In this document: piece after piece, positions 18,447 to 34,689 of the stretch
Layout of the letters: each line of letters begins with the position of its first letter
Numbering within the stretch: position 1 is the stretch's first letter
Assembly: GCA_023248815.1 (NCBI GenBank)
Contig: JAHFDV010000002.1
Coordinates: 1-40,898, forward strand
DNA: 40,898 bases
Direction of reading: 5' to 3'
Source of the DNA: Myxococcales bacterium
GTDB taxonomy: Bacteria > Myxococcota_A > Polyangia > Polyangiales > Polyangiaceae
Notes under the pieces: model-generated
Database searches by the model: none
Told to the model about the DNA's origin: nothing
The model's input: only the letters and a program-made list of their open reading frames with translations
Position numbers and translations under genes: made by a program

Positions 18447-18505
18447 AGGAGAGGAAGGGATTCGAACCCTCGGTACGGTTGCCCGCACACATGATTTCCA
18501 AGCAT
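18447..18505 (-). repeat. Displaced 3' half of tRNA-Ser (acceptor 3' strand, T-arm, variable arm, anticodon stem-loop); left att junction
   Basis: It shares GGGATTCGAACCCTCGGT (18457-18474) and CACACATGATTTCCAA (18486-18501) with the full tRNA at 34473-34559. Beyond 18505 it lacks the 5' anticodon-stem strand, the D-arm and the 5' acceptor strand. Confidence 0.85.
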
Positions 18506-18768
18506 ACCCATCGTCCTCGGAAAACCGGAGCGCTGAAGATGCTTCAGAAATAAGTCCGTGTAACCCTCACGTATCCACTGAACGCAGGGCAGACGATGGG
18601 CAATCCGAGGAGCTCGACCGGGCTCTGACGGCGGCCCTCGAGGGGGCTACGGCCGATCGGCGTTGGGATGTCGTAGCACAGCTCGTGAAGGAGCTCGAAG
18701 CACGCAGGCTCGGCAGAGAGCCGAACGTCATTCCTCTCGATGCGAAGCGCAAGGGCAGGCGGGGATAG
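18502..18768 (+). other. Start-less coding-like segment in frame with the att core; predicted alternative C-terminal tail of Int in the excised (attP) form
   Basis: The frame reading the core as T-H-D-F-Q stays open for 88 more codons (AYPSSSENRS...ELDRALTAALEGATADRRWDVVAQLVKELEARRLGREPNVIPLDAKRKGRRG*). It has GC-rich third positions and no ATG, GTG or TTG start of its own. The int ORF uses the same frame at the right-hand core. Confidence 0.4.
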
Positions 18769-18866
18769 GCGTCGCGTTCGCGAGCCTGCCGTCGTCGCTC
18801 ACTCGGAGCGTTCCAAGACGGCGGCAGGCTTGTGAGCATGACGCTTACGAGAAGGATGAAACGACC

Positions 18867-19484
18867 ATGGCACACGATGTACTAAGCACGAACACCTGGG
18901 ACGCGGCGATCGCATTCGAACCGACGAACGAGCAGATCGCGATCGAGTGCGCGCGCTGGCTCTATTCAAAAGCCGGCGCTGATTGGGACGCGGGCGACCG
19001 CGTGACAGTGGGCGATCTTCGCGTGGCTCTTGGCTACGAGACGCGAATATTCCCGCTCCGTGCGGGGGCCGCGCTGGGACGCTTTGCAGAAGACTTCCGT
19101 CCCGTGCTTCCGGGCTGGCCGGTTTCGGACGAGGGCTCTCGGTTTCTGGTCCTTCATGCCTCGGTGATTCACAAAGGCGACAAGACGCGCGCATTCGTCG
19201 GGCAGCTCCTCGCCGAGGAAGCGCTACGTGCGATGGGCGTAGGTCGGTCGGCGCGTGCTTGCAGCATCCTGCGCGAAGTCGGACACCTGCTCGCCTGCCG
19301 TGGCGCTGGCATCGAGCTGAAGCGAGACGAAACGATTAGGGACGCCGAATACTGGAATCGGGTCATCGACCAAGACGAGGCGATCGCACGCAAGCGGCAG
19401 CCCGGCGTGTGGCGTCGAATCGATCGAGACGCACGACGTAGCGACAAGCGAGGTCGCCACAGCGAAGGCACGGAGCGCGCATGA
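18867..19484 (+). CDS. Hypothetical protein (element left-end cargo gene 1)
   Basis: The ATG at 18867 is preceded by GAAGGA. The 205-aa product has no motif I recognise. The stop overlaps the next start (ATGA). Confidence 0.6.
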   Translation: MAHDVLSTNTWDAAIAFEPTNEQIAIECARWLYSKAGADWDAGDRVTVGDLRVALGYETRIFPLRAGAALGRFAEDFRPVLPGWPVSDEGSRFLVLHASVIHKGDKTRAFVGQLLAEEALRAMGVGRSARACSILREVGHLLACRGAGIELKRDETIRDAEYWNRVIDQDEAIARKRQPGVWRRIDRDARRSDKRGRHSEGTERA

Positions 19485-19828
19485 TCGATCTCACGAGCAC
19501 CCATCACAAGGTGAAGAAGACAATCGAGGAGGTGCAGCGATCGGGGAAGCCCCTTCGCGAGCGGGCGAAGATGATTCGAGAAGCCCTCGCAGAGCTGCAT
19601 TGCCGCGCGCGCGGCGAAGACGTGCCGTTCACCGACGCGTCGATTCGTGCCCTCATGTGCGTCCTCGCTGTCGCGTGGAACTACACGGGCGAGGCCTCTC
19701 TTTTGGAGATCCTCGAACGCTGGCAGACGACAGCCGTCGACAAGATGCTCGATTCACTCGCCATCAATCCCGACGACGAGGCCGAGGTCCTTCGGTTCGT
19801 CGATGGCGGAAAGCGGCGGCGCAAATGA
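19481..19828 (+). CDS. Hypothetical protein (cargo gene 2)
   Basis: The 115-aa ORF is translationally coupled at both ends (ATGA overlaps at 19481 and 19825). Confidence 0.6.
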   Translation: MIDLTSTHHKVKKTIEEVQRSGKPLRERAKMIREALAELHCRARGEDVPFTDASIRALMCVLAVAWNYTGEASLLEILERWQTTAVDKMLDSLAINPDDEAEVLRFVDGGKRRRK

Positions 19829-20646
19829 GAGCTTCGCCAGCACTACAAAGCGCCATCAGCAAACCTCTGGAATCGAAGGACATTCCGCCGAAAGACAGGG
19901 CGAGAGGCATCCGAATTGCGCCATCGGCCGCGGTTCAGTCGTACGATGACATCGTGCCTCGCAGCGGAGAGAAGCCGGGTCGAAAGGGTCGACTTCCTCT
20001 CGCGGAACTCGCAGATCGCGAGCTCGTCGCTCAAGCCGTTCCGATTGTGTGGCGGGCGATGCGGGAGCTTCAAGAACTCCGCTCTACCGAAGGCGCTTCG
20101 GACGCGGCGCTCGCGCATCTCGATGAGATGAGGATCGTGCTCGAAGCCGTGCGGCTCTCTTTAGGACCGAAGCTCGCCGAGCGCACCGTTGTTAGCGTGG
20201 CAGATCTGTTGCGCGCAAAATGGGCGAGGGATGCGAAGTCTTCTCTCACGAGCAACGGGTGGTCGTTCGTGCACGGCAGACTGCCCGAAGAGGACGCCGC
20301 TGCGAAGGTAGTCAAGCTGCTGCCACCAATCCCAGGCACTGCGGTGCTCTCGCAAGAGGAAGCGACGTCGCGTGCTGAAATCGCGGTGACGTTTCTGTCG
20401 GAGTTCGTGCCGCCCTCGGTGAGGCGTCAACCTGGATGGTTCGAGAGCGTCGTGGGCAAGACTGAGAAGGCCATGGTGTCGGCGAAGGAGCGATACTTCT
20501 CCGTTTCCTCTGAGGAGCAGACACGACTCGCTCTCAATGCGCTTGGCCTGAAAGCATCGAACTTCTTTCGAACCAAGAAAAAGAAAGCCAGCAAGCTCAC
20601 ACTCCTGAGTGTGAGCCCACCTGCGTCGAAGCGCTCGCGACGCTAA
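19825..20646 (+). CDS. Hypothetical protein with a Lys/Arg-rich C-terminus (cargo gene 3)
   Basis: The internal ATG of tracked ORF 19600-20646 overlaps the preceding stop. The product is 273 aa, from MRASPALQSAISKPLE... to ...FFRTKKKKASKLTLLSVSPPASKRSRR. Confidence 0.6.
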   Translation: MRASPALQSAISKPLESKDIPPKDRARGIRIAPSAAVQSYDDIVPRSGEKPGRKGRLPLAELADRELVAQAVPIVWRAMRELQELRSTEGASDAALAHLDEMRIVLEAVRLSLGPKLAERTVVSVADLLRAKWARDAKSSLTSNGWSFVHGRLPEEDAAAKVVKLLPPIPGTAVLSQEEATSRAEIAVTFLSEFVPPSVRRQPGWFESVVGKTEKAMVSAKERYFSVSSEEQTRLALNALGLKASNFFRTKKKKASKLTLLSVSPPASKRSRR

Positions 20647-20661
20647 CGGCCTCATCGCATC

Positions 20662-20865: not shown

Positions 20866-20886
20866 CCATCAACCCGAGCGCGCACG

Positions 20887-20941
20887 CCGTTCGCACAAAA
20901 AAGCGAACGGCCCGGGGGTCGCATCCCGAGCCGCTCTTTTT
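20887..20941 (+). terminator. Terminator-like hairpins ending the left-end module
   Basis: A perfect 8-bp stem, CCGTTCGC (20887-20894) with GCGAACGG (20903-20910), is followed by a second imperfect GC hairpin and TTTTT (20937-20941). Confidence 0.5.
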
Positions 20942-20952
20942 GGAGTCCAGCA

Positions 20953-21288
20953 ATGAAGAATCGTAATCAGAAAGACGAAGAACGCAAGCCGAACGAAACG
21001 GGGAATGTGCATGCAATCGCGTCCGTGCTCCCGTTCACAATCTCGGCAGCCAACTGCGAGCTGCTAACGGGCCGGCCGTGGACGGCGACGCTCGCATGGG
21101 CGAAGCGGAAGGGACTTCCGATTGTCTCCACGCGGCCTCCGGCCATCCTCGCGCGGCCGTTGCTGAAGCTCCTCGAGGAGGAGGCGCAAGCGGGAGAGCT
21201 CGAGAGCGTGAACGAAGAGACGTCGACCTCGAGCGCGGACGACGTACTTGCGGCCGTCGGCCTTCGTCGCATGGGCGGTGCGAAGTGA
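20953..21288 (+). CDS. Putative DNA-binding protein (HTH-like); first gene of the long rightward operon
   Basis: The 111-aa product has an HTH-like segment, ISAANCELLTGRPWTATLAWAKRKGLPIV, and an acidic C-terminal part. Confidence 0.5.
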   Translation: MKNRNQKDEERKPNETGNVHAIASVLPFTISAANCELLTGRPWTATLAWAKRKGLPIVSTRPPAILARPLLKLLEEEAQAGELESVNEETSTSSADDVLAAVGLRRMGGAK

Positions 21289-21497
21289 GTCGTAACCGCG
21301 AAGGCGCCGTGGACAACTCAGAACAACTTCGCATTGCTGCGCGCTCCGTCGCCAACGTGCGGCTGCTTCACGAGGTCTCGTGCGGCGTAAGCGGCTGTCT
21401 CGCGCCAGCGCGTCAGTTTCGCGTGCCGCCGTCGCAGCCCTATGCCGTCGTGCCCGTCTGCTCGAAGCACAAGATTCACTGGGCGGAGGTGGCATGA
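21285..21497 (+). CDS. Small Cys/His protein (possible zinc-binding)
   Basis: The GTG start overlaps the preceding stop (GTGA). The 70-aa product reads ...VSCGVSGCLAPARQF...VVPVCSKHKIHW. Confidence 0.45.
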   Translation: MSRNREGAVDNSEQLRIAARSVANVRLLHEVSCGVSGCLAPARQFRVPPSQPYAVVPVCSKHKIHWAEVA

Positions 21498-22345
21498 GCT
21501 GGCTTCGCATCGACGATCGCGCGCACTCGCACATCAAGTTCCTTCGAGCCGGTCACGAGGCGACCGGCTTCTGGATGATGTGCGGCTCCTACGCGGCAGA
21601 TCACGAGCTAAACGGCGAGGTTCCTCGGGAGTTTGCCGAGCGTTTGGCGGGATCTCCTCAAGCTCTTCGCCGCCTTTCGTCAAAACTTATCGCCGTTGGT
21701 CTCTGGGAAGTTTCGGAGACCGGTTGGCGCATGCACGACTACCTCGCGTGGAACCCGTCACGCGAAGAACTCGAACGAAAACGAGTGGATGCTTCGGCAA
21801 AAGGGCGAAAGGGAGCGGGCGCACGATGGGGATCTCGTGATGCCACGGGCATAGCTGCGGGCAATGCCACGGGCATAGCGGCAAGCAATGCGGCCTGTAT
21901 GCCCCCGTCCCGTCCCGACCCGACCAGTCCCAGAGAGAGAGAAAAAGATCTCCCTTCGGGAGATGTAAAAACCCCCACCGCCAAGAGCGCGTCTTCGGCG
22001 AAGCGGGGCGAGCGCCTTCCCGAAAACTGGCAGGCATCGCCGGAGCTCCTCGCGAAGCTTCGTTCGAAGTTCAAGGTCGATGCGGCTGCAGCCGTTGACC
22101 GCTTCAAGAATCACTGGCTCGCTGCCAGCGGCCGCAACGCGACAAAGCTCGATTGGAATCGAGCGTTCGAAAACTGGGTCGACGAGGACACGAGCCGCGG
22201 GAAGCTCCCGGTGTGGATTGCGCCGCGCCCGCGCCTCGCAAAGGTCGCGGACGTTGGCTTCGCGCTCGACGGCGAAAAGCTCATCGACGCTCGAGCGCAA
22301 ATCACCGAACTCGAAAACAAGATCTCCGCTGGGGTGCTTCGATGA
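21494..22345 (+). CDS. Putative phage replication organizer/initiator (lambda O / DnaD-like role)
   Basis: The ATGA-coupled start gives an N-terminus MSWLRIDDRAHSHIKFLRAGHEATGFWMMCGSYAA. The C-terminus LPENWQASPELLAKL...VDRFKNHWLAASGRNATKLDWNRAFENWV resembles C-terminal motifs of phage replication proteins. It lies directly upstream of the primase and helicase genes. Confidence 0.5.
   Translation: MSWLRIDDRAHSHIKFLRAGHEATGFWMMCGSYAADHELNGEVPREFAERLAGSPQALRRLSSKLIAVGLWEVSETGWRMHDYLAWNPSREELERKRVDASAKGRKGAGARWGSRDATGIAAGNATGIAASNAACMPPSRPDPTSPREREKDLPSGDVKTPTAKSASSAKRGERLPENWQASPELLAKLRSKFKVDAAAAVDRFKNHWLAASGRNATKLDWNRAFENWVDEDTSRGKLPVWIAPRPRLAKVADVGFALDGEKLIDARAQITELENKISAGVLR
21841..21888 (+). 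repeat. Tandem 24-bp repeat inside the replication-organizer gene (candidate iterons)
   Basis: TGCCACGGGCATAGCTGCGGGCAA (21841-21864) is followed by TGCCACGGGCATAGCGGCAAGCAA (21865-21888). Together they encode ATGIAAGNATGIAASN. Confidence 0.7.
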
Positions 22346-23418
22346 GCGCCTCGACGAACCGACCCGACTACGCACGCGAGATTCGCTATGCGCTCACCGA
22401 CGCTCGAGCGCTTTGCGACGCCCTCGGGCTCCTCGCTCGCGGCAAGTGGTCGAAGCAGCCGCGGGGCGTAATCGTCGCGTGTCCCTGGCACGATGACCGC
22501 TCGCCGTCCTGCTCCGTCCGCGTCGCAAAGGACGGCACGATCTCGGCAAAGTGCTTCTCGTGCGACCAATCGGGCGACGCGCTCGCGCTCATCGCGCAGG
22601 TGCGAGGCATCTCGCTCACGCGTGAGTTTCCCGCCGTCCTCCTCGAGGCCGCCGAGCTTGCAGGCCTTCATGCGATCGCGCACGAACTTCGAACGGGCGC
22701 CCCGTCCGCCGAAGCTCGCCAGCCGGCGGCGCTTCCGCCAGTGTCCACCGAACCCGAGCGGGACTATCCCGCGCGCAGCGAAGTGCTTGCGCTCTGGGAG
22801 CGCGCAGGGGACGTGAGCGACGACCACGAGGCCGCGGCATGGCTGCGCTCTCGCGGCATGGATCGCTTCGCGGTGGCCGGCGCTGACGTCGTTCGGTGCC
22901 TTCCACCGAAGGCTCGTCTTCCGCGCTGGGCGAGCTACCGCGGCCGTTCGTGGGTGGAGACGGGGCATCGACTCGTCTTCGCGATGCGCGACGCCAGCGG
23001 GTCGCTGAGGAGCCTTCGCGCGTGTCGCATCGTCGAGGGCGACTCGCCGAAACGTCTACCGCCGGGCGGTCACCGGGCGAGCGGCCTCGTGCTCGCATGC
23101 GGTCTGGCGACGGCGATGCTTGCGGGGACGTACCGCCCTCGCCTCGTGGTGATCTCGGAGGGCGAGCCCGACTTCCTGACGTGGGCCTCGCGTCCCGGCA
23201 TGGCCCCGACGGCGCGGATCGGAATCGTTTCCGGCTCGTGGTCCGAATCCTTCGCCGCGCGCTTCCCGTCCGCCGCCTACGGCGCTCCCTGCACGGTCGT
23301 GATCCGAACCGACCGCGACGAAGCAGGAACCCGATACGCGAAAGAGATTGCTCCGTCGCTCCAGCAACGCGGCTGCCTCGTTCGTTGGACTCCTCGTGAG
23401 GTGCGCCATGCTGCATGA
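22342..23418 (+). CDS. DNA primase (CHC2 zinc finger plus TOPRIM)
   Basis: CPWHDDRSPSCSV...KCFSCDQSGDALALI is a CHC2 zinc finger. The TOPRIM-like motifs are VVISEGEPDFLT and VIRTDRDEAG. The start is ATGA-coupled. Confidence 0.8.
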   Translation: MSASTNRPDYAREIRYALTDARALCDALGLLARGKWSKQPRGVIVACPWHDDRSPSCSVRVAKDGTISAKCFSCDQSGDALALIAQVRGISLTREFPAVLLEAAELAGLHAIAHELRTGAPSAEARQPAALPPVSTEPERDYPARSEVLALWERAGDVSDDHEAAAWLRSRGMDRFAVAGADVVRCLPPKARLPRWASYRGRSWVETGHRLVFAMRDASGSLRSLRACRIVEGDSPKRLPPGGHRASGLVLACGLATAMLAGTYRPRLVVISEGEPDFLTWASRPGMAPTARIGIVSGSWSESFAARFPSAAYGAPCTVVIRTDRDEAGTRYAKEIAPSLQQRGCLVRWTPREVRHAA

Positions 23419-24931
23419 GACACGCGATGACAACGCGCTCCACGTCGCAGGAGAGCTCCCGATTGATCCGACCGCGGACGCCGTGCCGATGCCGCCGGAC
23501 ACGTCCGCGCGCCAAGCGACCCTGCAGCTCGTCACGGCGGACACGGACGCGCGCCGGCTCGCGACGCCGATCGATCACATCGCCGAAGCTCAGCTGCTTG
23601 GAATGATCCTTTGGGCGGGCAAGCACTCGCCCGGGGCCGTGACGATGGGGATGGTTCGAGACCTCGTCGATGCCGGGAAATTCGCGCTATCCGCGCATCA
23701 GACGATAGCTACCGCGATCGTTCAGCTTGAACAGTCGGGCGCCGGCGTCGATCCGGTGTCAGTTCATTCCGAGCTCGTACGCACGTCGATTGCTCGAACC
23801 GTGGGCGGAATCGACTACCTCGAGAAGCTCACGAGCTCCGTGGGCGTTCCAACCGAGAAGAGCCTGCGCGAGCACGCAGCGTCGATCCGTCAGATGTGGG
23901 ATCGACGCGGGCTGATGAAGCTCGGTCGGTTCTTCGAGGAGCGCGCGAAGAAGGCGAGCTCGAGCGCGGAGGCACTCACGGATGCGCGCCGTGCGTTCGA
24001 GGAGTACGCAACCAAAGTCGGCGCGACATCGACGGGTACCGTCTCGCTTGCGACATGCACCGCGACGGTGATCCGTCAGGTGCTCGAGGAGCGCAAAGAC
24101 GGCTTCCGAACGGGACTTGAAACCCTCGACGATCTGACGGGCGGTTTCTTTCCGGGAGAGTTCTCGATCCTCGGAGCGCGCACTTCGGTCGGCAAGAGCG
24201 CGTTCGCGCTCCAATGCGGCATAGGCACCGTCGATCACAATGAGAACGCAGCAGTGCTTTTCATCACCCTCGAGATGACTGGCATGGCGTTCTCTCGCCG
24301 CGCTCTGGCCGCCATGGCTGGCGTTCAAACGAACAAGCTGCGGCGCGGCCTGATCAATCAAAGCGAGTACTCGCGGCTGATGGCGGCGGCTCAGCAGATC
24401 GAAACGAAAGCCATCACGTTCGCCGAATCCCAAAGCCAGACGGTCGCGAGCATCGAGGCGCTCGCGAGAAGCCACGCGGAGGCTCTGGCGCGTAGCGGGA
24501 AGCGTCTCGCGCTCGTCGTGATCGATCACGTCGGGCTCGTGCAACCCGACGCCGCTTCGCAAAAGAAGAATCGCGAGCAGCAGGTAGCCGAGACGTCGCG
24601 CGCGTGCGTGCGCATGGCGGCCGAGCTGAACTGCGCCGTGCTCGGACTAGTGCAGATCAAGCGCGAAGCCGAGGGCCAGAACGGCAGCAAGATGCCGCGC
24701 CTTCACCATCTTCGCGAGAGCGGCGCGCTCGAGCAGGACGCACACAATGTGCTGATCCTTCACCGCGCACGCGACGCGAGTGGCGCGCGCTTCGAAGATG
24801 AGCCCGCCGTGCTCGCGCTCGCGAAGGCGCGCGACGACGAACCCGCGATCGTACGTCTTGGTTTCGAGTCAGCGAAGCAGCGCTTCTTCGACCTCCAATA
24901 CGAAGAACGATCGGTGGAGGTCGCGCCATGA
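23408..24931 (+). CDS. DnaB-family replicative helicase
   Basis: The N-terminal DnaB-like domain reads IAEAQLLGMIL...GIDYLEKL. The motifs are LDDLTGGFFPGEFSILGARTSVGKSAFAL (Walker A), LVVIDHVGL (Walker B) and QIKREAE. The start MLHETR at 23408 overlaps the primase stop by 11 nt. Confidence 0.85.
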   Translation: MLHETRDDNALHVAGELPIDPTADAVPMPPDTSARQATLQLVTADTDARRLATPIDHIAEAQLLGMILWAGKHSPGAVTMGMVRDLVDAGKFALSAHQTIATAIVQLEQSGAGVDPVSVHSELVRTSIARTVGGIDYLEKLTSSVGVPTEKSLREHAASIRQMWDRRGLMKLGRFFEERAKKASSSAEALTDARRAFEEYATKVGATSTGTVSLATCTATVIRQVLEERKDGFRTGLETLDDLTGGFFPGEFSILGARTSVGKSAFALQCGIGTVDHNENAAVLFITLEMTGMAFSRRALAAMAGVQTNKLRRGLINQSEYSRLMAAAQQIETKAITFAESQSQTVASIEALARSHAEALARSGKRLALVVIDHVGLVQPDAASQKKNREQQVAETSRACVRMAAELNCAVLGLVQIKREAEGQNGSKMPRLHHLRESGALEQDAHNVLILHRARDASGARFEDEPAVLALAKARDDEPAIVRLGFESAKQRFFDLQYEERSVEVAP

Positions 24932-25332
24932 AGCGCCACGGAAGACCCGTCGCGTCGTCGCGACGTCCAGCAACGGGCAACACTCCGAGCGAGCTTCGTC
25001 CCCTCGTACCGCTCGCAGTGAAAGCCCTAAGCGGCTCGCCGTTCGCCTCTCCCGCGAAATGGCCTCACGCTGTAGTGATCCTGCGCGCCGACGAGAGGAG
25101 CGTGTCGCATCGGAGCGCATTCGCCGCATGGCTCTCTGCCAACGATCTCGGAGCGCTCGCTAACGAGGCCCGCAGGCGCGTCGTGAGGCCCGGCGAGGCT
25201 CTCGTCTACGTCGATGTCGACACCTCCGAATTTGCGATCGCCCGCTTTTACGTCCTCGACGTCTTCGCCGCAGCGAGCGCGGAGATCGCACGATCTGAAA
25301 CCACGAACCACGAAAAGGAAAATCAGCCATGA
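24928..25332 (+). CDS. Hypothetical protein
   Basis: The 134-aa ORF is ATGA-coupled at both ends. Confidence 0.55.
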   Translation: MKRHGRPVASSRRPATGNTPSELRPLVPLAVKALSGSPFASPAKWPHAVVILRADERSVSHRSAFAAWLSANDLGALANEARRRVVRPGEALVYVDVDTSEFAIARFYVLDVFAAASAEIARSETTNHEKENQP

Positions 25333-26386: not shown

Positions 26387-26959
26387 ATGGCGAATCCGAT
26401 GAAGACGGCAATCTACCTGCCGAAGCTGCTTGCTGCCCTCGACGTGGCTACCCCTGAAGAAGCGGTCGGCGCGATCGAAGGGTTGAAGGCGCAGGCCGAG
26501 CACGTCGACGCGCTAACTCTCGAGCTTGCGAAGCTGAAAAGGTTCGCCGGTGAGAAAGACGTGAGCGAGATCCTGCGAGTGGGCGAGGAAGCGGGCAAGA
26601 TCACGCCCGCGAACAAGGCCTCGTTCCTGGAGATCTGCGGAGCGACCGTCGCGAAAATGGATGAGCGCGGCCGCGTCGTCGCTTCGAAGAGCAAGACGGG
26701 CCACGTCGACGTGCGTGGCGTGCCGCTCGAGACGCTTCCCGATGTCGCACGGCTAAGCACGCTCATAGCCAGCCTTCCCGTCATCGCACCACGAGAGCCG
26801 ACGAGGACGCGCGCGCCGGGCGAGAGCGGTTCACGTCTCAGCGCACGGCAAAAGGCCACCGTGAAGCGGCTTGGCGTCACCGAGGAGGATTACATCGCGC
26901 AATACAACGCGATCGTTGCAGGCCCGGAAGACCTCACCCCGATCGACACCGATCGGTAA
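26387..26959 (+). CDS. Phage scaffold-like protein (Mu gpI/Z-type motifs)
   Basis: LDVATPEEAVGAIEGLKAQ, the GKITPANKASFLE motif, and the C-terminal LSARQKATVKRLGVTEEDYIAQY are all patterns common in phage protease/scaffold proteins. The family is recalled, not searched. Confidence 0.55.
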   Translation: MANPMKTAIYLPKLLAALDVATPEEAVGAIEGLKAQAEHVDALTLELAKLKRFAGEKDVSEILRVGEEAGKITPANKASFLEICGATVAKMDERGRVVASKSKTGHVDVRGVPLETLPDVARLSTLIASLPVIAPREPTRTRAPGESGSRLSARQKATVKRLGVTEEDYIAQYNAIVAGPEDLTPIDTDR

Positions 26960-26987: not shown

Positions 26988-28835
26988 ATGGCAGACATCA
27001 ACTGGATCTTCGAGATGGTGGACAAGGTGAGCAAGCCGCTCGACGACGTCCAGAAGAAACTCGACGCGATGCCGAAGAGCGCCGACGCCGTCGAGAAGGC
27101 GATCGCGAAGGTAGAGCGCGCGATGATGCTCAAGAAGATCCAAGGGACGTCGGACCCTCTCCAGAAGACACTGCTCACGCTGAAGGCGCAGCAGAAGGCG
27201 CTGAAGGAGAACGGCGGCGTCCTCGGTTGGTTCAAGGACAAGCTCGGCGGCAATGGCGTAGCAGCGGGCGTCGCAGGCGCGGGCGTGCTGCTCTTTGCGA
27301 GCGCTGCGGGGTCGCTCATGCACAGCTTGCTCGGAGCTGGGGTGGGGATGGCGAAACTCGCCTTCGAGTCGTCGGAGGGCAAGCGCGCCATGATGGGCGC
27401 GCTCGAGGTGTTCGAAGGCAGCGGCACCGATGCCGCATTCGACACGCTTCAACAGATGGGCATCAAGGCCGGCGTCTCCGCTGACGCAACCGTCGAAGCT
27501 TTCACGCGCATGCGCACGGCCGGCTTCAAGGCGAAGGAAGCACAGGACATCATCGCCGCATCCTTCGACCTCTCGGCCAAGTTTGGCGGTGGAGAGAAGG
27601 GGCTCGAACACGCGACCAAGTTCCAAGACCTGATGGCGAAGGTTGACGTGCTCTCGAAGTCGGGAGCGAAAGACATGAAGGCCGCCGTTCTCGGCGCCGG
27701 CGTCAACATCGACGCTTTGCAGGCGTCGGTCGCGCAAAGAATGAAGGTGCCGGTCGATCAAGCGAAGACGTTGCTCGCTGAAGGAAAAGTCGGCGAGGCG
27801 ACCATGAAGAACGCGCTCATCGATGCTGTGCAAGACTCGCTCGACAATGGTGGAGCACTCGGTAGCAATGCTCTCAAGTTCGCGAAGGGCAGCATCGTCG
27901 CGCAGGTCACGAGTCTGAAGGGGGTCTTCGACAACATTTTCGAAGACGTCAATCTCGGCCCATTCGCCAGCGTGCTCGGAAGGATCACCGACGAGCTTTC
28001 TCGCAAAGGCGGGCCCGCCGACAAACTCAAGGCCATGGCGGGTGGCGCTTTCGAAATGGTCGGAGCTTTCACTTCCGGAATCGACATCGCCGGGGTCATC
28101 GGAACCGTTGTCGACTGGATCGGCAAAGGCGGCGACCTCATCGGGGAACTAGTTTCGGGCTTCAACGAAGTCTTCAACTCCGTCATGATCGACACGATCG
28201 ATCAGATGTCCGGCTCTACGCAGGGTATGGGGATGTCGTTCGAAGACGTGAAGATGGTTATCCACGCGACCGGGCAAGTGCTCGGGACGATGGTGACGAT
28301 TGGCTACGCCGTCGGCAAGGCCGTCATCGGCGTCGTCGAGACGATCGCCGAAGCGGTGATGGGGCTCGGCATGGCGCTCGGTTGGATTCTCGACAAGATG
28401 GGACTCATCGGCGAGGAAGCCCCGAAGTTTGGCGGTGCGTTCAAGGATGGCCTCGACCAGGGCACGAACGCTATCAAGGGCGGCAAGTTCGCGGACACCG
28501 TTTACGACGAGTACGCCGTTCAGCCTGGCGCGAAAATGGAAGTCGCTTCCCCGTCGAAGGTGACGACGCGCATCGGTGGTCACATTGCCGAAGGCTACAA
28601 CGTCGGCTTCGACGACAAGATCGGCACGGGCGACGTGCAAAGCTTCCTCTCGAGCGACTCGGTCGCTTTCGATTCATCCGGCTACTCCGATAGCGGGAGC
28701 GGCATCCGCGATGTCAACGTCACGTTCGGAGACATCTACGTCAACGGCGACAGCGCAAGCGCGATCGCGAACGACCTCCGCGCGCAAGTTCGCGTCGAGG
28801 TGATTGGGCTCTTCGAAGAGATGGGACAAGGGTAA
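26988..28835 (+). CDS. Tape-measure-like protein
   Basis: The ATG is preceded by GGAGCGAAGGAG. The 615-aa product is largely helical with Gly/Ala-rich hydrophobic stretches (GVAAGVAGAGVLLFASAAG; IAGVIGTVVDWIG; GLGMALGWIL). It also has a TMP-core-like segment, LQQMGIKAGVSADATVEAFTRMRTAGFKAKEAQDII. Confidence 0.5.
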   Translation: MADINWIFEMVDKVSKPLDDVQKKLDAMPKSADAVEKAIAKVERAMMLKKIQGTSDPLQKTLLTLKAQQKALKENGGVLGWFKDKLGGNGVAAGVAGAGVLLFASAAGSLMHSLLGAGVGMAKLAFESSEGKRAMMGALEVFEGSGTDAAFDTLQQMGIKAGVSADATVEAFTRMRTAGFKAKEAQDIIAASFDLSAKFGGGEKGLEHATKFQDLMAKVDVLSKSGAKDMKAAVLGAGVNIDALQASVAQRMKVPVDQAKTLLAEGKVGEATMKNALIDAVQDSLDNGGALGSNALKFAKGSIVAQVTSLKGVFDNIFEDVNLGPFASVLGRITDELSRKGGPADKLKAMAGGAFEMVGAFTSGIDIAGVIGTVVDWIGKGGDLIGELVSGFNEVFNSVMIDTIDQMSGSTQGMGMSFEDVKMVIHATGQVLGTMVTIGYAVGKAVIGVVETIAEAVMGLGMALGWILDKMGLIGEEAPKFGGAFKDGLDQGTNAIKGGKFADTVYDEYAVQPGAKMEVASPSKVTTRIGGHIAEGYNVGFDDKIGTGDVQSFLSSDSVAFDSSGYSDSGSGIRDVNVTFGDIYVNGDSASAIANDLRAQVRVEVIGLFEEMGQG

Positions 28836-29251
28836 TGATGAGTGCAGAGGACACCAACGCTCCTACGACGCTGACCTCGGACGAGCTCGATGCGGTGGTG
28901 CGATACCTATCCAGCCTCGGCACGCCGGCGCCTTGCCCTGTCTGCAGCGCGAACGCGTGGTTCGTGTTGAGAGAGCTCGTGTGCCAGCCGATGGTGAAGC
29001 CCAACTCAACGCTTCTCCTGGATTGGTGCGTTCCGTTCGTCACCCTGACCTGCAACGCTTGCTCGTTCGCGAGGCAGTTCGCATGGCAAACGCTGCGCGA
29101 GCGTGTCTTCGGATCATCGCTCACCCATACCCCCCCGCCAAAATTACAGCGGAAGCGCAAAATGGCCGACGGCGGCCGCCTTCGGCTCAAAACGCATTCT
29201 GAACGAAACTTTGCATATGCGAACCGTCATCCAGTGGAGGTGAAACCGTGA
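28835..29251 (+). CDS. Small protein with two CxxC pairs (zinc-ribbon-like)
   Basis: The start overlaps the stop as TAATG. The CxxC pairs are CPVCSANAW... and ...LTCNACSF. The C-terminus is basic. Confidence 0.5.
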   Translation: MMSAEDTNAPTTLTSDELDAVVRYLSSLGTPAPCPVCSANAWFVLRELVCQPMVKPNSTLLLDWCVPFVTLTCNACSFARQFAWQTLRERVFGSSLTHTPPPKLQRKRKMADGGRLRLKTHSERNFAYANRHPVEVKP

Positions 29252-29930: not shown

Positions 29931-30484
29931 GGCACCAAATGACCCGACCAATGATGACCAGCCAATTCCGATCAGGCTCGCTCGACGAACAGCTCGAGCG
30001 AATCAGGAACCGAAGTAAGGCCGCTGCTTCCGACAACGGCTCGGGCGCGAAGCCTGAGGAGCTGCAGAAACTCTTCGACACTCTCGGTGTGAAAACGATC
30101 GCCGAGGCGATCGGCGCCGCGGCGGGACTCGTCGTGAAGGGCGCCAAGTACGACGAGGAGCACGCGGACGAGGAGGATCCGCCGACGGGTGAACAGGCGG
30201 CGTCCCACCGTCCCCATGCTCACGCGAGCAGCTCGTCGACAGGTGCTCGGCTCACCCTTCGAGAGCGTGAGATCGCTGCTCGTCACGGCGTGTCGGCCGA
30301 AGACTTCCTGGCGCAAAAGAGAGTATTCACGGGGGAGCCGCCTGTGGCGTCTTCACCGCAGCGTGCGAGCGGGTCGCCGACGAAGATCACCCAACGCGGG
30401 CGCCAGCTTGCCGCGCTGAGAGGAGTAAGCGAGGAAGAGTGGCTTGCCGAACGGCAGAAGGTCGTGACGGGTCACTTCGGGTGA
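29927..30484 (+). CDS. Scaffold-motif protein (paralogous motifs)
   Basis: It carries TLGVKTIAEAIGAAAGLVVKGAKYDEEHA (nt 30080-30133 and a little beyond). It also has two copies of the xTxRxxxxAxxxGVSxEDF/WLAxxQ motif (LTLREREIAARHGVSAEDFLAQKR and ITQRGRQLAALRGVSEEEWLAERQ). Confidence 0.55.
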   Translation: MRHQMTRPMMTSQFRSGSLDEQLERIRNRSKAAASDNGSGAKPEELQKLFDTLGVKTIAEAIGAAAGLVVKGAKYDEEHADEEDPPTGEQAASHRPHAHASSSSTGARLTLREREIAARHGVSAEDFLAQKRVFTGEPPVASSPQRASGSPTKITQRGRQLAALRGVSEEEWLAERQKVVTGHFG

Positions 30485-30831
30485 CGGAGCTCGGCCCCGT
30501 CCTCACCGTCGCCGAGCTCGCGACGAAAGCAGGCTGGAACTATCAACGGATGTGGCGGCACCTCCGCGCGCTCAACGATGAACGCGGAGGTACGCTGCTT
30601 CGCAACACGTCGCGCTCGAAGAAGCGAGCTCGCTGGACGGCGAGCCTCGCCGCGCTTCGCTCGGCGTCTCCCGAGTGGTTTGGCGCGGGCGGAGCGCTTA
30701 CTGACCAGGAAAGCTATGAAGATCTCGACGCGCGCGTGCGCCGACTCGAGCACACGCTCGAAGCGCTGATTCGGAAGGACTTAAGGGAACGGGCGTCAGC
30801 GCCCCTTCAAGTAGCGCGCCGCGCGAGCTAA
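30481..30831 (+). CDS. HTH DNA-binding protein (excisionase/MerR-like N-terminus)
   Basis: The GTG start is GTGA-coupled. The sequence is VTELGPVLTVAELATKAGWNYQRMWRHLRAL followed by a coiled-coil tail. Confidence 0.5.
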   Translation: MTELGPVLTVAELATKAGWNYQRMWRHLRALNDERGGTLLRNTSRSKKRARWTASLAALRSASPEWFGAGGALTDQESYEDLDARVRRLEHTLEALIRKDLRERASAPLQVARRAS

Positions 30832-30878
30832 GCCGCAAGCGAAGCGAAACTTCGCACTCGTGCGCTACCAATCAACGC

Positions 30879-31067
30879 ATGAGGGTCTGGATAGGTGCGA
30901 GCGGAAGCAAGCCGCCGCGAATCTTCGCGTCAGAAAGCTCGGCGAAGAAGGCCGGTCAGTTCGAGGCTTACTTTAATAGCTACCCCGCCGAACTCACGCG
31001 TGACGTCTTTGAGCAGCTCTGCGAAGCAATGCGAGAGCCCGGCGACGGGCACCAGGAAGAACCTTAG
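30879..31067 (+). CDS. Small hypothetical protein
   Basis: This 62-aa ORF is the last gene of the rightward block. Its stop overlaps the stop of the convergent minus-strand ORF. Confidence 0.4.
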   Translation: MRVWIGASGSKPPRIFASESSAKKAGQFEAYFNSYPAELTRDVFEQLCEAMREPGDGHQEEP

Positions 31068-31333
31068 GAAGGACGGCTGTGATCAGCGCGCTCGAGCTGC
31101 TCTTCGGCTGCGCGCATTGTGCGGAGCGCGAGCACGATCGCTTCTCGTGCGGCGGAGGTCCTGCCGTGGTCGTACTCGACGAGTAGAGTGCTCAGTTCGT
31201 TGGAGGCAGAGGCGAGGGTGTCGCGAAGGGATTGCATATGATGCGCATCGACCATTCCTCGCGCTGGGTTGCTTCCCGAAGCACGAGGAGTCCGCCCCGT
31301 CGCCAAACTGCGCGACGGGGCTTCCTCACTCAT
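31064..31333 (-). CDS. Hypothetical protein
   Basis: The MSEEAPSRS... start at 31333 lies inside tracked ORF 31064-31381. It begins 5 nt after the stop of the small upstream ORF. Confidence 0.4.
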   Translation of the reverse strand: MSEEAPSRSLATGRTPRASGSNPARGMVDAHHMQSLRDTLASASNELSTLLVEYDHGRTSAAREAIVLALRTMRAAEEQLERADHSRPS

Positions 31334-31337
31334 CACC

Positions 31338-31466
31338 TCACGCGCCGAATGGCCACGCGCGGTATCCGTAGTCCGCAGCAAACATCAGCTTTCCAGTGCG
31401 GTAGTGGCGATAAACCGTACAAAAACCACGACCTGCCTTGGAACGCTTTTTATTTTTGCGTTTCAT
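31338..31466 (-). CDS. Very small basic protein (42 aa), hypothetical
   Basis: The minus-strand translation is MKRKNKKRSKAGRGFCTVYRHYRTGKLMFAADYGYRAWPFGA*. It is below the ORF-track size cutoff. An AAAGGG sequence lies upstream. Its third-position GC is lower than that of its neighbours. Confidence 0.3.
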   Translation of the reverse strand: MKRKNKKRSKAGRGFCTVYRHYRTGKLMFAADYGYRAWPFGA

Positions 31467-31597
31467 GGGGGTACACCCTTTCCGCTGCTCGAGAGCTGAG
31501 CGCTTGACTAAGGGGGTCCGACGGATGCACGCTATCTGTCCCTGCAGAGTGCGCGTCGGCTTACGTCAATACGTTGGCCCGGCAGCATTAGGCCAAT

Positions 31598-31640
31598 CGA
31601 ACGTCACAGGCGCCAACCCGTGACGTTCGAAACTTTTTGT
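31598..31640 (+). terminator. Perfect 10-bp inverted repeat followed by a T-run (terminator or operator)
   Basis: CGAACGTCAC (31598-31607), a 12-nt loop, then GTGACGTTCG (31620-31629), followed by AAACTTTTTGT. TTACGTCA direct repeats flank it at 31561-31568 and 31648-31655. Confidence 0.45.
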
Positions 31641-31652: not shown

Positions 31653-32270
31653 TCACTCGTACCTCCCAAGAAGTTTCAGTCTCTTCAGATGCGAGCGCAT
31701 CATGCTCCCGCTTACCTCGAAGCGGTCTGCCAGGGCTTGGACGGTGTTCTCGCCAGACGCGAGAATGGCCGCACGAGGCGCCAGAAAATTCCCGGCGAAA
31801 GCCCACGCCTGCCATTCCGGGTCTCGGTACGGCGGGATTTCGTCCCTTCGCATCTTGCGATTCAGGAGGGTCTCAGCGTTCGGGAGACTCATGCGTCTCC
31901 TAAGTATAGGTACGTGCAAAATGGCGTGACCAAGCTCGTGCGCGAGCGTCGCACGAGCGCGATTTGCAGCGCGCCCCCCATCGAGCAGCTCGTGCCAAAG
32001 CGACTGCTGAATGAGGATGTGCGTCTCGTCCTTCTCGGTCGCGATGGGCACGGTAGCGGCCAGCCGGTCTTCCAACTCGACCGCGCTCGCCGGATAGACG
32101 TGAATACCGTACGCGGGAAGCTGCTCGACCAATGAGACGAGGTCAATCGCGCAAGACGCCTCTGCGCCTCCGTCGTAAAATAGGCCGCGAGTGCTGGCGC
32201 CGATGGCCTCAATGCCGGCCGTCGGAACGGGCGGCATCATAGGAACGCGCTCGGTGCCAAAGTCACTCAT
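31653..32270 (-). CDS. ImmA/IrrE-family zinc metallopeptidase
   Basis: The HEXXH motif lies in ATLAHELGHAILH. The MSDFG start at 32270 overlaps the stop of the upstream XRE gene by 8 nt. This is the typical XRE-ImmA pair of mobile elements. Confidence 0.8.
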   Translation of the reverse strand: MSDFGTERVPMMPPVPTAGIEAIGASTRGLFYDGGAEASCAIDLVSLVEQLPAYGIHVYPASAVELEDRLAATVPIATEKDETHILIQQSLWHELLDGGRAANRARATLAHELGHAILHVPILRRRMSLPNAETLLNRKMRRDEIPPYRDPEWQAWAFAGNFLAPRAAILASGENTVQALADRFEVSGSMMRSHLKRLKLLGRYE

Positions 32271-32646
32271 CGTCGTCCTCACTGTTCAGAATAGAGAGTA
32301 GGGCGTCGAGTTCGGCGGGCCGCAGGTCACGGCGGTCTATGCGACGCGCAAGTGCGAGGCCCAAGTCTAAATATGCGCGCGGCGCGTCCGTAAGCTCAAG
32401 CTGCACGCCTCTGAGTGGCGCCATTTCGCGTTCGATCTCGTCCTCAGAGAAGCCCGGGATGATCTCGGCGAGCTGCTTCCAGCGCTCGCGTTTCAGGGAT
32501 GTGCGCACACCGCGTTCAACTTCGGCGATCAAGACATGCGAGACGCTCATTGCATCGGCCACTTCGCGAAGACTCATTCCAGCCGCGATGCGTCGTTTGC
32601 GCAGGTATCTGCCGAAAACGCTGGGTTCCGGGGTCTTGTTAACCAT
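32263..32646 (-). CDS. XRE-family HTH repressor (cI/ImmR-like)
   Basis: The HTH is FGRYLRKRRIAAGMSLREVADAMSVSHVLIAEVERG. The start is uncertain: MVNKTPE at 32646 is preferred, but the ORF stays open to the GTG at 32739. Confidence 0.8.
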   Translation of the reverse strand: MVNKTPEPSVFGRYLRKRRIAAGMSLREVADAMSVSHVLIAEVERGVRTSLKRERWKQLAEIIPGFSEDEIEREMAPLRGVQLELTDAPRAYLDLGLALARRIDRRDLRPAELDALLSILNSEDDDE

Positions 32647-32787
32647 CTGGTTCACAGGAGAACACATCACCTTGTTATCGTCCAAAAATTTGGCCATTTT
32701 TGAAATATGAAAATGAATTTTGGTAGGACCATTCAGCACTTGAACGTTTGAGCAGTGACTTGGACGAAGGTTTAGTTACTTTCGACC

Positions 32788-32841
32788 TGGACAACGTCGT
32801 AGCTCGTTGTATATACATTGGGCGACTGTAGTACGTCGTAC
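32788..32841 (+). promoter_or_regulatory. Candidate rightward promoter with overlapping palindromic operators in the AT-rich divergent region
   Basis: TGGACA (32788-32793), a 16-nt spacer, then TATATA (32810-32815). ACAACG-N8-CGTTGT (32791-32810) sits between them. Also present are the perfect palindrome TGTATATACA (32808-32817), GTACG-T-CGTAC (32831-32841), and the direct 8-mer ACGTCGTA at 32793-32800 and 32833-32840. Confidence 0.35.
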
Positions 32842-32858
32842 ATACGAAAGGCGCCGTC

Positions 32859-33038
32859 GTGCATACTGATTCGATGCGAGAGAAGGTGTTCAACATCCGC
32901 TTCAGCGAGGAGGAGTGGGCACGAATCCAAGCACTCGCGGCTCATCACGAGTTGCCCGCTGCTCAGATTCTTCGACTGCTCATCAAGCGCGAACACGCGG
33001 CCATCTTCCCTGCGCCGGCAAAGAAGTCGAAGCGTTGA
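32859..33038 (+). CDS. Ribbon-helix-helix (CopG/Arc/MetJ-like) small protein upstream of int; candidate Cro or excision factor
   Basis: The GTG at 32859 is preceded by GAAAGG 8 nt upstream. The translation is VHTDSMREKVFNIRFSEEEWARIQALAAHHELPAAQILRLLIKREHAAIFPAPAKKSKR*. A beta-strand followed by two helices is the typical RHH pattern. At 59 aa it falls just below the track cutoff. Confidence 0.6.
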   Translation: MHTDSMREKVFNIRFSEEEWARIQALAAHHELPAAQILRLLIKREHAAIFPAPAKKSKR

Positions 33039-33138
33039 AAATGAAAGCTCCCGCGCTGCGCTAACAGCCGGGAGCGTGGTCCGACCTAGGAAAGAGATCG
33101 AACAATGCAAACCCTAACTCTCGCACTCGAGGTGCGCC

Positions 33139-34689
33139 ATGGCTAAGCCAGCCGTCGGCGAGCTCATCCCCACCGCGACCGGGTACTCCGCGCGCATCCG
33201 CGTTGCCGGCGACCGCGTCACGCTTCCGCTCGTGCACTTCACGCGCGAGCAGCCCGACGAAGCACGGGAGCGCATGACAGCGCTCGCAGGAATCGCGCAG
33301 CGCCTCTTTCGTGCGAAGCGCGCAGACGACGCCGCCAAGCTCGTGAAGATCGGTGCAGATGCTCGGCCCGGCGCGCCGTGGGCGGCTGTGCTCTCAGCCG
33401 TCGACGTCATCTGTCGGGGAGAGGCGGAAGCGCTTTCTCCCGATGGCGTGACGTTCGAGGGATTCGCGAAGCGTTGGACCGAAGGTGAGCTCGCGCGACG
33501 CTACCCCGATCACGTTTTGAAGAAGCGCTCCGTCGAGGCCGATCGCCGCTTTCTTCGCCTCTACGTACTCCCCACGATCGGGCACTTGCCGATCGAGAGC
33601 GTCACGCTCGAGCATGCGGACGCCGTCCTCGAGGCCATTCCTACGCGCCTCGGAGCGGCATCGCGCCGCCACGTCGCCCAGGTGCTGCGCCGCGTACTCG
33701 CGCTCGCGGTCTACCCTGGTCGCTTGCTCAACACGAACCCCATCCCGGCGCGCTGGCTGCCTTCAGTGAAGGTTTCGCGACGCTTCACGCTTCTCTACCC
33801 GTCCGAAGATCGGGCGCTCCTCGCATGCCCGAAGGTGCCACTGTGGCGCCGGCTCTACTTCGGCATTCTCTCGAGGGAGGGACTTCGCCGCGACGAGCTC
33901 GCTTCGCTTCGCTGGCGACACATCGATCTCGAGCGAGGGATGCTCTTCCTCGACCGGAACAAGACGGACCAGACGCGTGGATGGGTACTCGAGCCGAGTG
34001 TGGTCGCTGCGCTCAAAGTCTGGAAGCGCATCTCTCGGCCGAAGGCAACGGCGGACCATCACATCTTCGGGGAGGGCGACGGAAGGGTGTACACGAACGA
34101 CCTCTCGGATCACCTACGCGCGGGCCTCCGAACGGCGGGTGTCACTCGAGAAGATCTGTTCGTCGAGAACGACGAGGTCCGCCGCGCGCTGCGAGTGCAT
34201 GACCTACGCGCAACGTTCGTCACGAGCTCCCTCGCGAACGGGAAAACGGAAACGTGGGTCTCCGATCGAACGGGCCACACCACTTCGAAGATGATCAATC
34301 ACTACCGCCGCGCCGCTCGCCAATGGTCCGAGATCAATCTCGGGACGCTGTCGCCGCTCGTGACGGCCATCCCTGAGATCGCCACTGAACACGAGCGCGA
34401 TTGCCCACCGATTGCCCATTCAGGAAATGGGGGCGGTGGTGGGGGTGGGCTCGCAACACCCGAAAAAACTAGAGGAGAGAGAGGGATTCGAACCCTCGGT
34501 GAGCTTGCACCCACACATGATTTCCAATCATGCGCCTTCGACCACTCGGCCACCTCCCCAACAGAGCCTCGCTCGTACCATAGCGGCCGCCATCGTGAAA
34601 GGCAGGTCTTGCGGAGAGGGCTGGAAAGCGCTTCTCATGGGGCCCCATGCTGGCGATTCCCCTCCTCATCCTTTCGAACATCTTCATGA
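33139..34689 (+). CDS. int: Tyrosine recombinase (phage integrase); the 3' end reads through the att core and tRNA-Ser on the opposite strand
   Basis: The catalytic signature is present: R in SREGLRRDELASLRW, HDLRATF (HxxR), and GHTTSKMINHY (H...Y). The catalytic domain is complete by about nt 34330. The ORF stays open through the tRNA to 34689. Confidence 0.9.
   Translation: MAKPAVGELIPTATGYSARIRVAGDRVTLPLVHFTREQPDEARERMTALAGIAQRLFRAKRADDAAKLVKIGADARPGAPWAAVLSAVDVICRGEAEALSPDGVTFEGFAKRWTEGELARRYPDHVLKKRSVEADRRFLRLYVLPTIGHLPIESVTLEHADAVLEAIPTRLGAASRRHVAQVLRRVLALAVYPGRLLNTNPIPARWLPSVKVSRRFTLLYPSEDRALLACPKVPLWRRLYFGILSREGLRRDELASLRWRHIDLERGMLFLDRNKTDQTRGWVLEPSVVAALKVWKRISRPKATADHHIFGEGDGRVYTNDLSDHLRAGLRTAGVTREDLFVENDEVRRALRVHDLRATFVTSSLANGKTETWVSDRTGHTTSKMINHYRRAARQWSEINLGTLSPLVTAIPEIATEHERDCPPIAHSGNGGGGGGGLATPEKTRGERGIRTLGELAPTHDFQSCAFDHSATSPTEPRSYHSGRHRERQVLRRGLESASHGAPCWRFPSSSFRTSS
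34473..34559 (-). tRNA. tRNA-Ser (anticodon GGA), 87 nt, CCA not encoded
   Basis: The minus-strand sequence is GGGGAGG-TG-GCC-GAGTGGTCGAA-GGC-G-CATGA-TTGGAAA-TCATG-TGTGGGTGCAAGCTCACC-GAGGG-TTCGAAT-CCCTC-TCTCTCC-T. It folds as a cloverleaf with the long variable arm typical of type II tRNAs, and the anticodon loop is TT-GGA-AA. Confidence 0.85.

Follow-up and report, generated by a model that had tools for sequence, protein, structure and literature searches.

In the myxophage Mx8, the phage attachment site (attP) lies within the integrase gene, int, and integration provides this gene with a new 3′ end by which its function is altered rather than abolished (reviewed in PMC6070905). Among phage satellites, the PLE of Vibrio cholerae encodes its own tape measure protein and forms chimeric tails, and putative tmp genes are also present in cfPICIs and other satellites (PMC12987554). 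The EPIPs of Mycolicibacterium encode a small terminase (TerS), a scaffold and a tape measure protein, and obtain the other tail and capsid parts from their helper (PMC12822802). Satellites of this kind, that is PLE and EPIPs, have been recognized only in 2025-26. The element described here resides in a 40,898-nt stretch of contig JAHFDV010000002.1 (GCA_023248815.1), referred to below as the window, to which all coordinates apply. In the account that we consider probable, it is a 16,026-bp element at a tRNA-Ser(GGA) gene, with attP inside its own int, and is likely a phage satellite.

The window contains a single tRNA gene, a tRNA-Ser(GGA) that ARAGORN places at 34472-34559 on the minus strand and the Rfam tRNA model at 34473-34559 (57.9 bits). 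A repeat search of the window reveals a 61-nt direct repeat (18445-18505 and 34471-34531) in which 53 of 61 positions are identical (87%), with a spacing of 16,026 bp; by our own estimate, the chance of so many in-register matches anywhere in 41 kb is approximately 1e-13. Three exact blocks are found at the two copies and nowhere else in the window: an 18-bp block, GGGATTCGAACCCTCGGT, at 18457 and 34483, the 16-bp core, CACACATGATTTCCAA, at 18486 and 34512, and AGAGGAGAG at 18445 and 34471. The seven mismatches within the tRNA-derived part are located in the variable arm and at the junction of the acceptor and T stems (2 nt at the junction). Neither ARAGORN nor the Rfam model calls a tRNA near 18.45 kb, and the left copy by itself is not recognized. 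Joining 18446-18501 to 34528-34559, which reconstructs the bacterial attachment site (attB), yields an 88-nt tRNA-Ser(GGA); the native tRNA reconstructed in this way folds, like the hybrid, as a cloverleaf with a paired variable arm. The 3′ half carried by the element would thus rebuild a working tRNA at attR, with the native 3′ half stranded at attL. The original prediction, made from the letters alone, had placed a tRNA-Ser on the minus strand with a copy of its 3′ half at the left, two exact blocks of 18 and 16 bp, and copies that differ in the variable arm; all of this is borne out, with the addition of the 2 nt at the stem junction, as are the tRNA calls that it proposed for both loci and its arithmetic for one core plus the interior (34527 - 18502 + 1 = 16,026 bp).

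The two variable arms were surveyed by scanning IMG/VR and metagenomes with a degenerate pattern comprising the variable arm and the core. This pattern has no match in IMG/VR. In the metagenomes it retrieves 20 complete, unrelated tRNA-Ser(GGA) genes, none of which has a second core copy. The attL arm, ACGGTTGCCCG, is present in 14 of the 20 and a one-base variant, GCGGTTGCCCG, in four more, and the element-type arm found at attR, GAGCTTGCACC, occurs in the remaining two (L027 and L032). Both arms are therefore natural variants, as each occurs in complete tRNA-Ser(GGA) genes. Because identity between the copies stops at the 5′ edge of the anticodon loop, the sequence favors a crossover in the 16-bp anticodon-loop block. 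A crossover in the 18-bp T-loop block could have occurred instead, and would change neither the reading frame nor the length of the element.

A second line of evidence for the boundaries comes from int. Residues 1-463 of the integrated integrase open reading frame (ORF; 33139-34527) are encoded by the element, and the last 53 residues are antisense to the tRNA 5′ half and continue into the host flank. There is no in-frame stop before the core, the first stop being at 34687, and the coding signal fades beyond approximately 34340. When 34527 is joined to 18502, as in an excised circle, the result is a 551-aa integrase ORF that ends at 18768. The 88-residue tail contributed by the left end matches the C-termini of 12 integrase homologues (E down to 3e-14), and the joined protein can be aligned over its entire length with homologues of 523-566 aa, which share a C-terminal motif that reads roughly ALAxALxxAxxAGRFDVVAQLAxELEARRLxxxxNVVxL. 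In a six-frame control of 18502-18771, the predicted frame gives 12 matches and the other five frames give none. The sequences beginning at 18502 and ending at 34527 were formerly contiguous, and attP lies inside int; since the joined ends restore the conserved integrase C-terminus, the element is 16,026 bp long. This reconstitution across both ends proves the boundaries and the circular junction without recourse to an empty site, and it independently corroborates the attP join that had been proposed (34511, core, 18502).

The integrase homologues display the same arrangement in both of its expected states. Five of them (P0132, P0142, P0152, P0157 and P0168) contain the same antisense-tRNA-Ser peptide (IRT…DFQ) and lose similarity exactly at residue 464, where the core ends, which is the pattern expected of integrated copies. 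The same tail is present in IMG/VR loci L037 and L043, and full-length forms are encoded by free viral DNA in L037 (circular), L036 and L043. The C-terminal motif can be used to tell "free" integrases in databases from "integrated" ones. The linker of the integrase includes the translated tRNA-like segment (…ERGIRTLGELAPTHDFQ…). Immediately ahead of the codons derived from the tRNA, a run at 34417-34446 encodes GNGGGGGGG, a low-complexity spacer between the catalytic domain and the attP segment.

The catalytic set R250, K275, H354, R357, H380 and Y389 is present, and these positions are invariant in the family alignment, with H380 nearly so. An earlier description of the integrase as intact thus stands with regard to catalysis, but the conserved C-terminus (88 codons) has been separated from the rest of the gene. 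The circular form would encode the 551-aa integrase with its conserved C-terminal helical motif, and integration would exchange the last 88 residues for 53 unrelated ones, a swap that by analogy with Mx8 would probably alter integrase activity in the lysogen. In the circle, a long plus-strand operon comes after int, and integration would uncouple the two. Taken together, these observations leave little doubt that the element entered tRNA-Ser(GGA) by site-specific recombination catalyzed by a tyrosine recombinase, and that int was split by the insertion. The features of the locus are collected in Table 1.

Table 1. Features at the tRNA-Ser(GGA) locus, in window coordinates
Coordinates	Strand	Feature	Basis or remark
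18378..18426	-	Hairpin 3′ of the displaced tRNA end; perhaps the native terminator, which the upstream DUF3253-DUF4385 gene may also use	Fold
18445..18505	-	attL: displaced tRNA-Ser(GGA) 3′ half, acceptor 3′ strand to anticodon loop	Core 18486-18501; not a functional tRNA
18502..18768	+	Orphaned integrase 3′ end, 88 codons + stop	Reads in frame with 33139-34527 only after excision, in the circle (attP form)
18867..20646	+	Three translationally coupled genes: 205 aa (18867-19484), 115 aa (19481-19828), 273 aa (19825-20646)	Public-assembly gene calls
20953..21497	+	Small genes of 111 aa and 70 aa, preceding the replication genes	Gene calls
21494..22345	+	Replication initiation protein, 283 aa	phrog_2447 E = 7.8e-36
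22342..23418	+	DnaG-type primase, CHC2 zinc finger + Toprim	PF01807 E = 2.3e-8; Toprim_2 weak; phrog_47
23408..24931	+	DnaB-like replicative helicase	PF03796 E = 3.7e-55; phrog_19 E = 6e-67
24928..26384	+	134-aa protein and 351-aa orphan, both translationally coupled to the helicase gene	
26387..26959	+	Scaffold-like protein, stand-alone, 190 aa	PF10123 E = 1.1e-7; phrog_328 E = 5.3e-10
26988..28835	+	Tape measure protein homologue, full length, 615 aa	Homologues and context
28835..29251	+	Cys-rich protein, 138 aa	
29248..29688	+	Small-terminase-like protein, 146 aa	51% identity to L011 gene
29685..30484	+	Two scaffold-like paralogues: 81 aa (29685-29930), 181 aa (29939-30484)	
30481..30831	+	116-aa protein, last gene of the plus-strand operon	No significant family match
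30832..31630	.	About 0.8 kb without coding signal, plus hairpin	Flat codon-position GC
31653..32697	-	M78 metallopeptidase (31653-32270) and XRE-type helix-turn-helix repressor (32263-32697)	PF06114 E = 5.8e-8; PF13560 E = 3e-10
32859..33038	+	May encode a small regulator of the ribbon-helix-helix type or a recombination directionality factor; divergent from the repressor, upstream of int	Read from sequence
33139..34689	+	Integrated-state integrase ORF, 516 aa	PF00589 E = 2.3e-15; phrog_1 E = 9.7e-26
34472..34559	-	attR: complete hybrid tRNA-Ser(GGA)	34528-34559 (5′) chromosomal; core 34512-34527; 34472-34511 (3′) element-supplied

Searches of Pfam, PHROGs and NCBIfam, together with tblastn against loci L011-L013, detect neither a large terminase (TerL), portal or major capsid gene nor any gene for a tail tube, sheath, baseplate or lysis in the element, and the same tools do detect virion genes in L011, L013, L036 and L037, which provide a positive control. 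In view of this lack of recognizable TerL, portal, capsid, tail and lysis genes, the element is not a complete prophage, and the earlier view of it as phage-like and intact holds only in part, given also the separation of int from its last 88 codons. A tblastx comparison of the element with L011-L013 returned compositional noise of the sort produced by high-GC DNA and was discarded.

Three kinds of morphogenesis-related genes are nonetheless present. The 615-aa protein has only six homologues (31-43% identity, 97-100% query coverage). In the Mu-head-like myoviruses L011 and L013, the homologue has the sheath, tube and chaperone genes on one side and the baseplate genes on the other; locus L012 begins at the homologue, with baseplate genes directly after it. 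There is also a weak match to a protein annotated as tape measure in Thermus phage Riverbug, and on the basis of this match and the homologue context the protein is assigned as a tape measure protein of full length. Throughout its length, the 146-aa protein shares 51% identity with an unannotated gene (79-591) of L011 that overlaps the start of TerL (phrog_2, E = 3.4e-33), and for this reason is considered TerS-like. Its AF2 model (pLDDT 70) has a helix-turn-helix at the N-terminus and then a helical hairpin, an arrangement that fits a TerS; a fold search against the PDB gave no significant match, with the small terminases of P74-26 and G20c at ranks 6-8 (E > 1).

The 190-aa protein aligns through residues 13-173 with positions 182-335 of the 339 in phrog_328 and thus corresponds to the C-terminal half of a Mu gpI-type protease/scaffold; with the C-terminal part of the protease/scaffold of L011 it shares 31% identity. 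Two further proteins appear to be paralogues, the 181-aa protein resembling the 190-aa one (28% over 172 aa, E = 3e-5) and the 81-aa protein resembling the 181-aa one (58% over 36 aa, E = 1e-9). PDB sequence searches with the tape measure, 351-aa, TerS-like and scaffold-like proteins were negative.

An element that has its own switch, integration and replication genes, and that adds to these TerS-like, scaffold-like and tape measure genes without other virion genes, suggests a satellite. We lean, with some reserve, toward a phage satellite with a tape measure gene of its own, as opposed to a prophage. Such an element would switch by means of its ImmR/ImmA-like pair, excise, and replicate itself with its initiator, primase and DnaB helicase. 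A Mu-head-like myovirus would act as helper, supplying the capsid, the packaging motor and the tail. The TerS-like protein would redirect packaging specificity, and the scaffold-like paralogues might lead to small capsids, the genome being about one-third to two-fifths the size of that of the helper. The tape measure protein of the element would give rise to chimeric tails, as shown for PLE.

Several points weigh against this interpretation. No second copy or relative of the element is found among 5.8 billion proteins or in IMG/VR, where searches with the tape measure alignment and the 351-aa, DnaB and TerS-like proteins retrieve no related element. Only the integrase family is widespread, and several element genes are orphans, so that the conserved architecture that usually argues for a satellite family is missing. 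Neither the genome nor the sample yielded a helper phage. Position and 51% identity are the grounds for the TerS assignment, family searches having been negative and the fold search non-significant, and the 351-, 273- and 205-aa orphans could hide divergent structural proteins. Finally, the data include neither an empty site nor reads across attP nor products of excision, and contigs from the same strain break at positions off the cores.

These contigs were found by exact look-up of the flank proteins, which places the same strain in ENA ERZ27297570 and Logan SRR14366766. They are 100% identical to the window across the left flank and the interior and differ at one position in 6,341 nt on the right flank; one of them, L010, is collinear with the window and 100% identical to it. 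Their breaks fall at 18250, ~19780, 21275, 31649 and 34556, away from the att cores: the ENA contigs end at ~19783 and start at 21275, and the Logan contigs break at 19778 and 31649. Those inside the element may reflect population variants or repeats in its left part. The Logan right-flank contig L005 stops 4 nt into the tRNA (positions 1-4 correspond to window 34556-34559), and its first two bases lie outside the alignment, the second differing from the window (ctcc versus cccc). This end probably represents a branch in the assembly graph shared with other tRNA-Ser genes of the metagenome, as opposed to an att polymorphism.

Host genes lie on both sides of the element, and the collections searched contain no close relative of the host lineage. 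The right-flank sulfatase has only matches of 23-27% identity among genome contigs. For the left-flank DUF3253-DUF4385 protein, the best homologue is 62% identical, and the contexts of homologues in L006-L008 are not syntenic; the named homologues belong to Kofleriaceae, Polyangiaceae and Myxococcales. Between this gene and attL is the hairpin that had been regarded as the native terminator of the displaced tRNA end. The hairpin does exist (-32.5 kcal/mol), but the evidence for termination is weak, with z = -1.6 and only UUCU as a U tract; a terminator-like match on the plus strand is located at 18398-18414. Just left of attL there is also a 40-nt imperfect direct repeat (85%; 18219-18258 and 18296-18335) that duplicates the 3′ end of the DUF3253-DUF4385 gene and may have been left as a scar by some earlier event. 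The first copy of this repeat also contains the end of Logan contig L009, at 18250.

A different explanation of the gene content is that a Mu-head-like temperate myovirus once integrated at tRNA-Ser and has since lost its virion and lysis genes, leaving an immobile or merely excisable relic. Relatives of the tape measure, scaffold and TerS proteins are found only in complete myoviruses, the 16-kb architecture turned up only in this one copy, and a tape measure gene without tube or sheath genes is a possible product of random decay; the GC content of the element, moreover, is indistinguishable from that of the host. The organization of the genes points the other way. Public assemblies and frame analysis agree on the gene calls, and no pseudogenes, frameshifts or truncated ORFs are seen in the element, whose tape measure protein covers 100% of its homologues. 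Coding density is 91%, and 12 of the 16 consecutive junctions in the plus-strand operon overlap by 1-11 nt, which bears out the tight gene coupling noted in the original prediction. Such overlaps join even unrelated modules, as at the helicase/134-aa, tape measure/138-aa and 138-aa/TerS junctions. The element order (scaffold, tape measure, 138 aa, TerS, scaffold paralogues) is not collinear with the phage order (TerS, TerL, portal, protease … tape measure) and cannot be reached from it by deletions alone. The scaffold gene stands alone as a clean ORF and has two additional paralogues, and the replication, switch and integration modules are complete. A decayed prophage consequently seems unlikely, although it is the alternative that best withstands these data.

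It is very improbable that the element is instead a very small autonomous temperate phage whose virion proteins are too divergent to recognize and are hidden among its orphan ORFs. At least nine ORFs do lack detectable homologues, and the circular 14.9-kb genome L037, which has an integrase of the same family, encodes recognizable major capsid and tape measure proteins. TerL, portal and HK97-fold capsid proteins are normally detectable with PHROGs or Pfam, however, and were found in L011, L013, L036 and L037 by the same tools. The unassigned ORFs are too small in total for a myovirus tail to match a 615-aa tape measure protein, and the 351-aa orphan is mostly coiled coil. That orphan has no homologue among 1.84 billion representative proteins, and its AF2 model (single-sequence, pLDDT 55) is confident only for an N-terminal coiled-coil hairpin (residues 1-80). 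A non-viral, unpackaged integrative element, such as a plasmid-like replicon or genomic island with a few captured phage genes, would account for an initiator, primase, DnaB and ImmR/ImmA-type switch like those of ICEBs1-like elements, but it is the least credible proposal, as no relaxase, coupling protein, type IV secretion or partition gene is detected in the element and the TerS-like, scaffold and tape measure proteins have no known role outside virion assembly.

The 205-, 115- and 273-aa proteins at the left end have no match in Pfam, PHROG, NCBIfam or PADLOC, and a gap of 306 nt separates the 273-aa gene from the 111-aa gene. Within the replication initiator gene, a 24-nt tandem duplication in perfect register (21840-21887) encodes a repeated ATGIAAxNA peptide. 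The 116-aa protein may bind DNA, judging from its sequence. The region between the operons is a candidate origin of replication or packaging (pac) region, plus terminator; it has no Rfam match and no iterons, and just downstream of the minus-strand operon it contains a 15-bp perfect hairpin (31597-31630; -26.6 kcal/mol, z = -3.3).

The M78 and XRE-type proteins match the capP and capH models, respectively, and the pair is of the ImmA/ImmR or CapP/CapH type. Between the repressor and int, public pipelines call an antisense 74-aa ORF (32772-32996, minus strand) in place of the plus-strand frame at 32859-33038. The latter would encode a protein of 54-59 aa with an N-terminus resembling a ribbon-helix-helix (…FNIRFSEEEWARIQALA…) and has sub-threshold matches to such regulators (NikA-like, E = 0.0024; ParD_like, E = 0.034), which makes it the better candidate for a Cro- or Xis-like regulator.

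If the element is indeed a satellite with its own tape measure protein, it is an independent case with unrelated integrase and replication modules, and would point to manipulation of the helper tail as a general strategy of satellites. No description of satellites in Myxococcota was encountered in the literature searched. One might go further and suggest, quite tentatively, that the element is the first of a new Myxococcota satellite family that exploits Mu-head-like myoviruses by contributing a small terminase, scaffold paralogues and a tape measure protein, forming small capsids and chimeric tails and carrying an exchangeable, translated tRNA-like attP cassette in the integrase linker, with the C-terminal motif of the integrase present only in the excised form. 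The integrase protein would in that case have the state of integration built into it.

The integrase belongs to a large group of proteins, with 716 homologues at E <= 1e-10; among the 119 listed, lengths range from 316 to 715 aa, and 13 carry the C-terminal motif. The loci found through the integrase share nothing but the integrase with the element. One of them, L037 (IMGVR_UViG_3300025154_000044), is a circular viral genome of 14,874 bp with a 127-bp terminal repeat that encodes a full-length integrase of this family along with tape measure and major capsid proteins and a helicase, and is thus a second very small element with a tape measure gene. Among deposited phages, the best integrase match is in Virus Rctr16k (L034, KX853514.1; 46% over residues 92-415), a 16.7-kb partial genome from a DAMO enrichment that also gives weak tape-measure-like and scaffold-like matches to proteins of the window. 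In L036, the linker of integrase P0173 contains a different tRNA-like segment in the sense orientation (11290-11340), with the same peptide in P0167; this segment is presumably a tRNA-Leu(CAG) 5′ half, up to and including the anticodon loop, as judged against the E. coli sequence. Members of the family seem, therefore, to carry different translated tRNA-like attP cassettes, and a linker that varies in this way offers a route to predict or re-engineer target specificity.

The closest parallel to the split integrase gene is in Mx8, where IntP becomes IntX, and in Mx9. In these phages, as in the element, attP occupies the 3′ part of int, and integration gives the protein a different C-terminus (PMC6070905). 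The integrases are similar in length (533 aa in Mx8, 551 aa here), and the host lineages are Myxococcota-like in both cases. The two integrases are nevertheless distant, with BLASTP aligning only their N-terminal halves (29% over 176 aa, E = 3e-10); no similarity is seen between their C-terminal tails, and Mx8 is absent from the tblastn matches to the element integrase at E <= 1e-5. By these comparisons, the element integrase is part of a widespread family separate from Mx8 Int. Mx8, furthermore, is a complete 49.5-kb phage, in contrast to a 16-kb element without capsid or tail genes, and the swap in the element removes a motif conserved in at least 13 homologues. The targets are also different, being tRNA-Asp for Mx8 and tRNA-Ser(GGA) for the element. 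What had appeared to be a peculiarity of Mx8 is, as the alignments indicate, a property of a broader, distinct integrase family with different tRNA-like linker segments.

The mode of integration is otherwise familiar. Williams, in 2002, reportedly distinguished classes of tRNA-targeting islands with tyrosine integrases, including one in which crossover takes place in the anticodon loop. As in islands of that class, the identity block in the element extends from the anticodon loop to the 3′ end of the tRNA, the tRNA is restored, and int abuts it. Unlike in those islands, the tRNA-like segment is translated within the integrase linker.

Among satellites, the PICI/SaPI group of phage-inducible chromosomal islands offers a similar layout. 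The element falls in the PICI-like size class (~10-18 kb) and has the integrase, repressor switch and replication module of that class. It resembles these islands in its length of about 15-16 kb, in the position of int at one end beside a divergent repressor module, and in having a replication module of its own; it also encodes a TerS-like protein and scaffold-type proteins for morphogenesis that are comparable to CpmB, and lacks capsid, tail and lysis genes. It differs in having no detected homology to PICI proteins and no AlpA, in devoting three separate genes, including DnaB, to replication, and in encoding a tape measure protein. The major capsid, portal, protease and head-tail connector proteins that cfPICIs provide for themselves are not detected in it. 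There is likewise no match in Pfam or PHROG to the Psu, Sid, Delta, AlpA or alpha-type primase-helicase proteins of P4-like satellites, and the primase and helicase of the element are separate proteins, DnaG-like and DnaB-like.

With PLE and the EPIPs, as they have been described, the element shares a satellite-encoded tape measure protein. These families have serine integrases, unrelated replication proteins and other helpers, whereas the element integrase is a tyrosine recombinase. Each also has genes of its own, RepA and TcaP in PLE and a major capsid protein and adaptors in EPIPs; capsid and adaptor genes are undetected in the element, in which a tail assembly chaperone or baseplate hub is not recognized either. 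The integration of the element is in itself ordinary, and its novelty lies in the combination of features that are each of a known kind.

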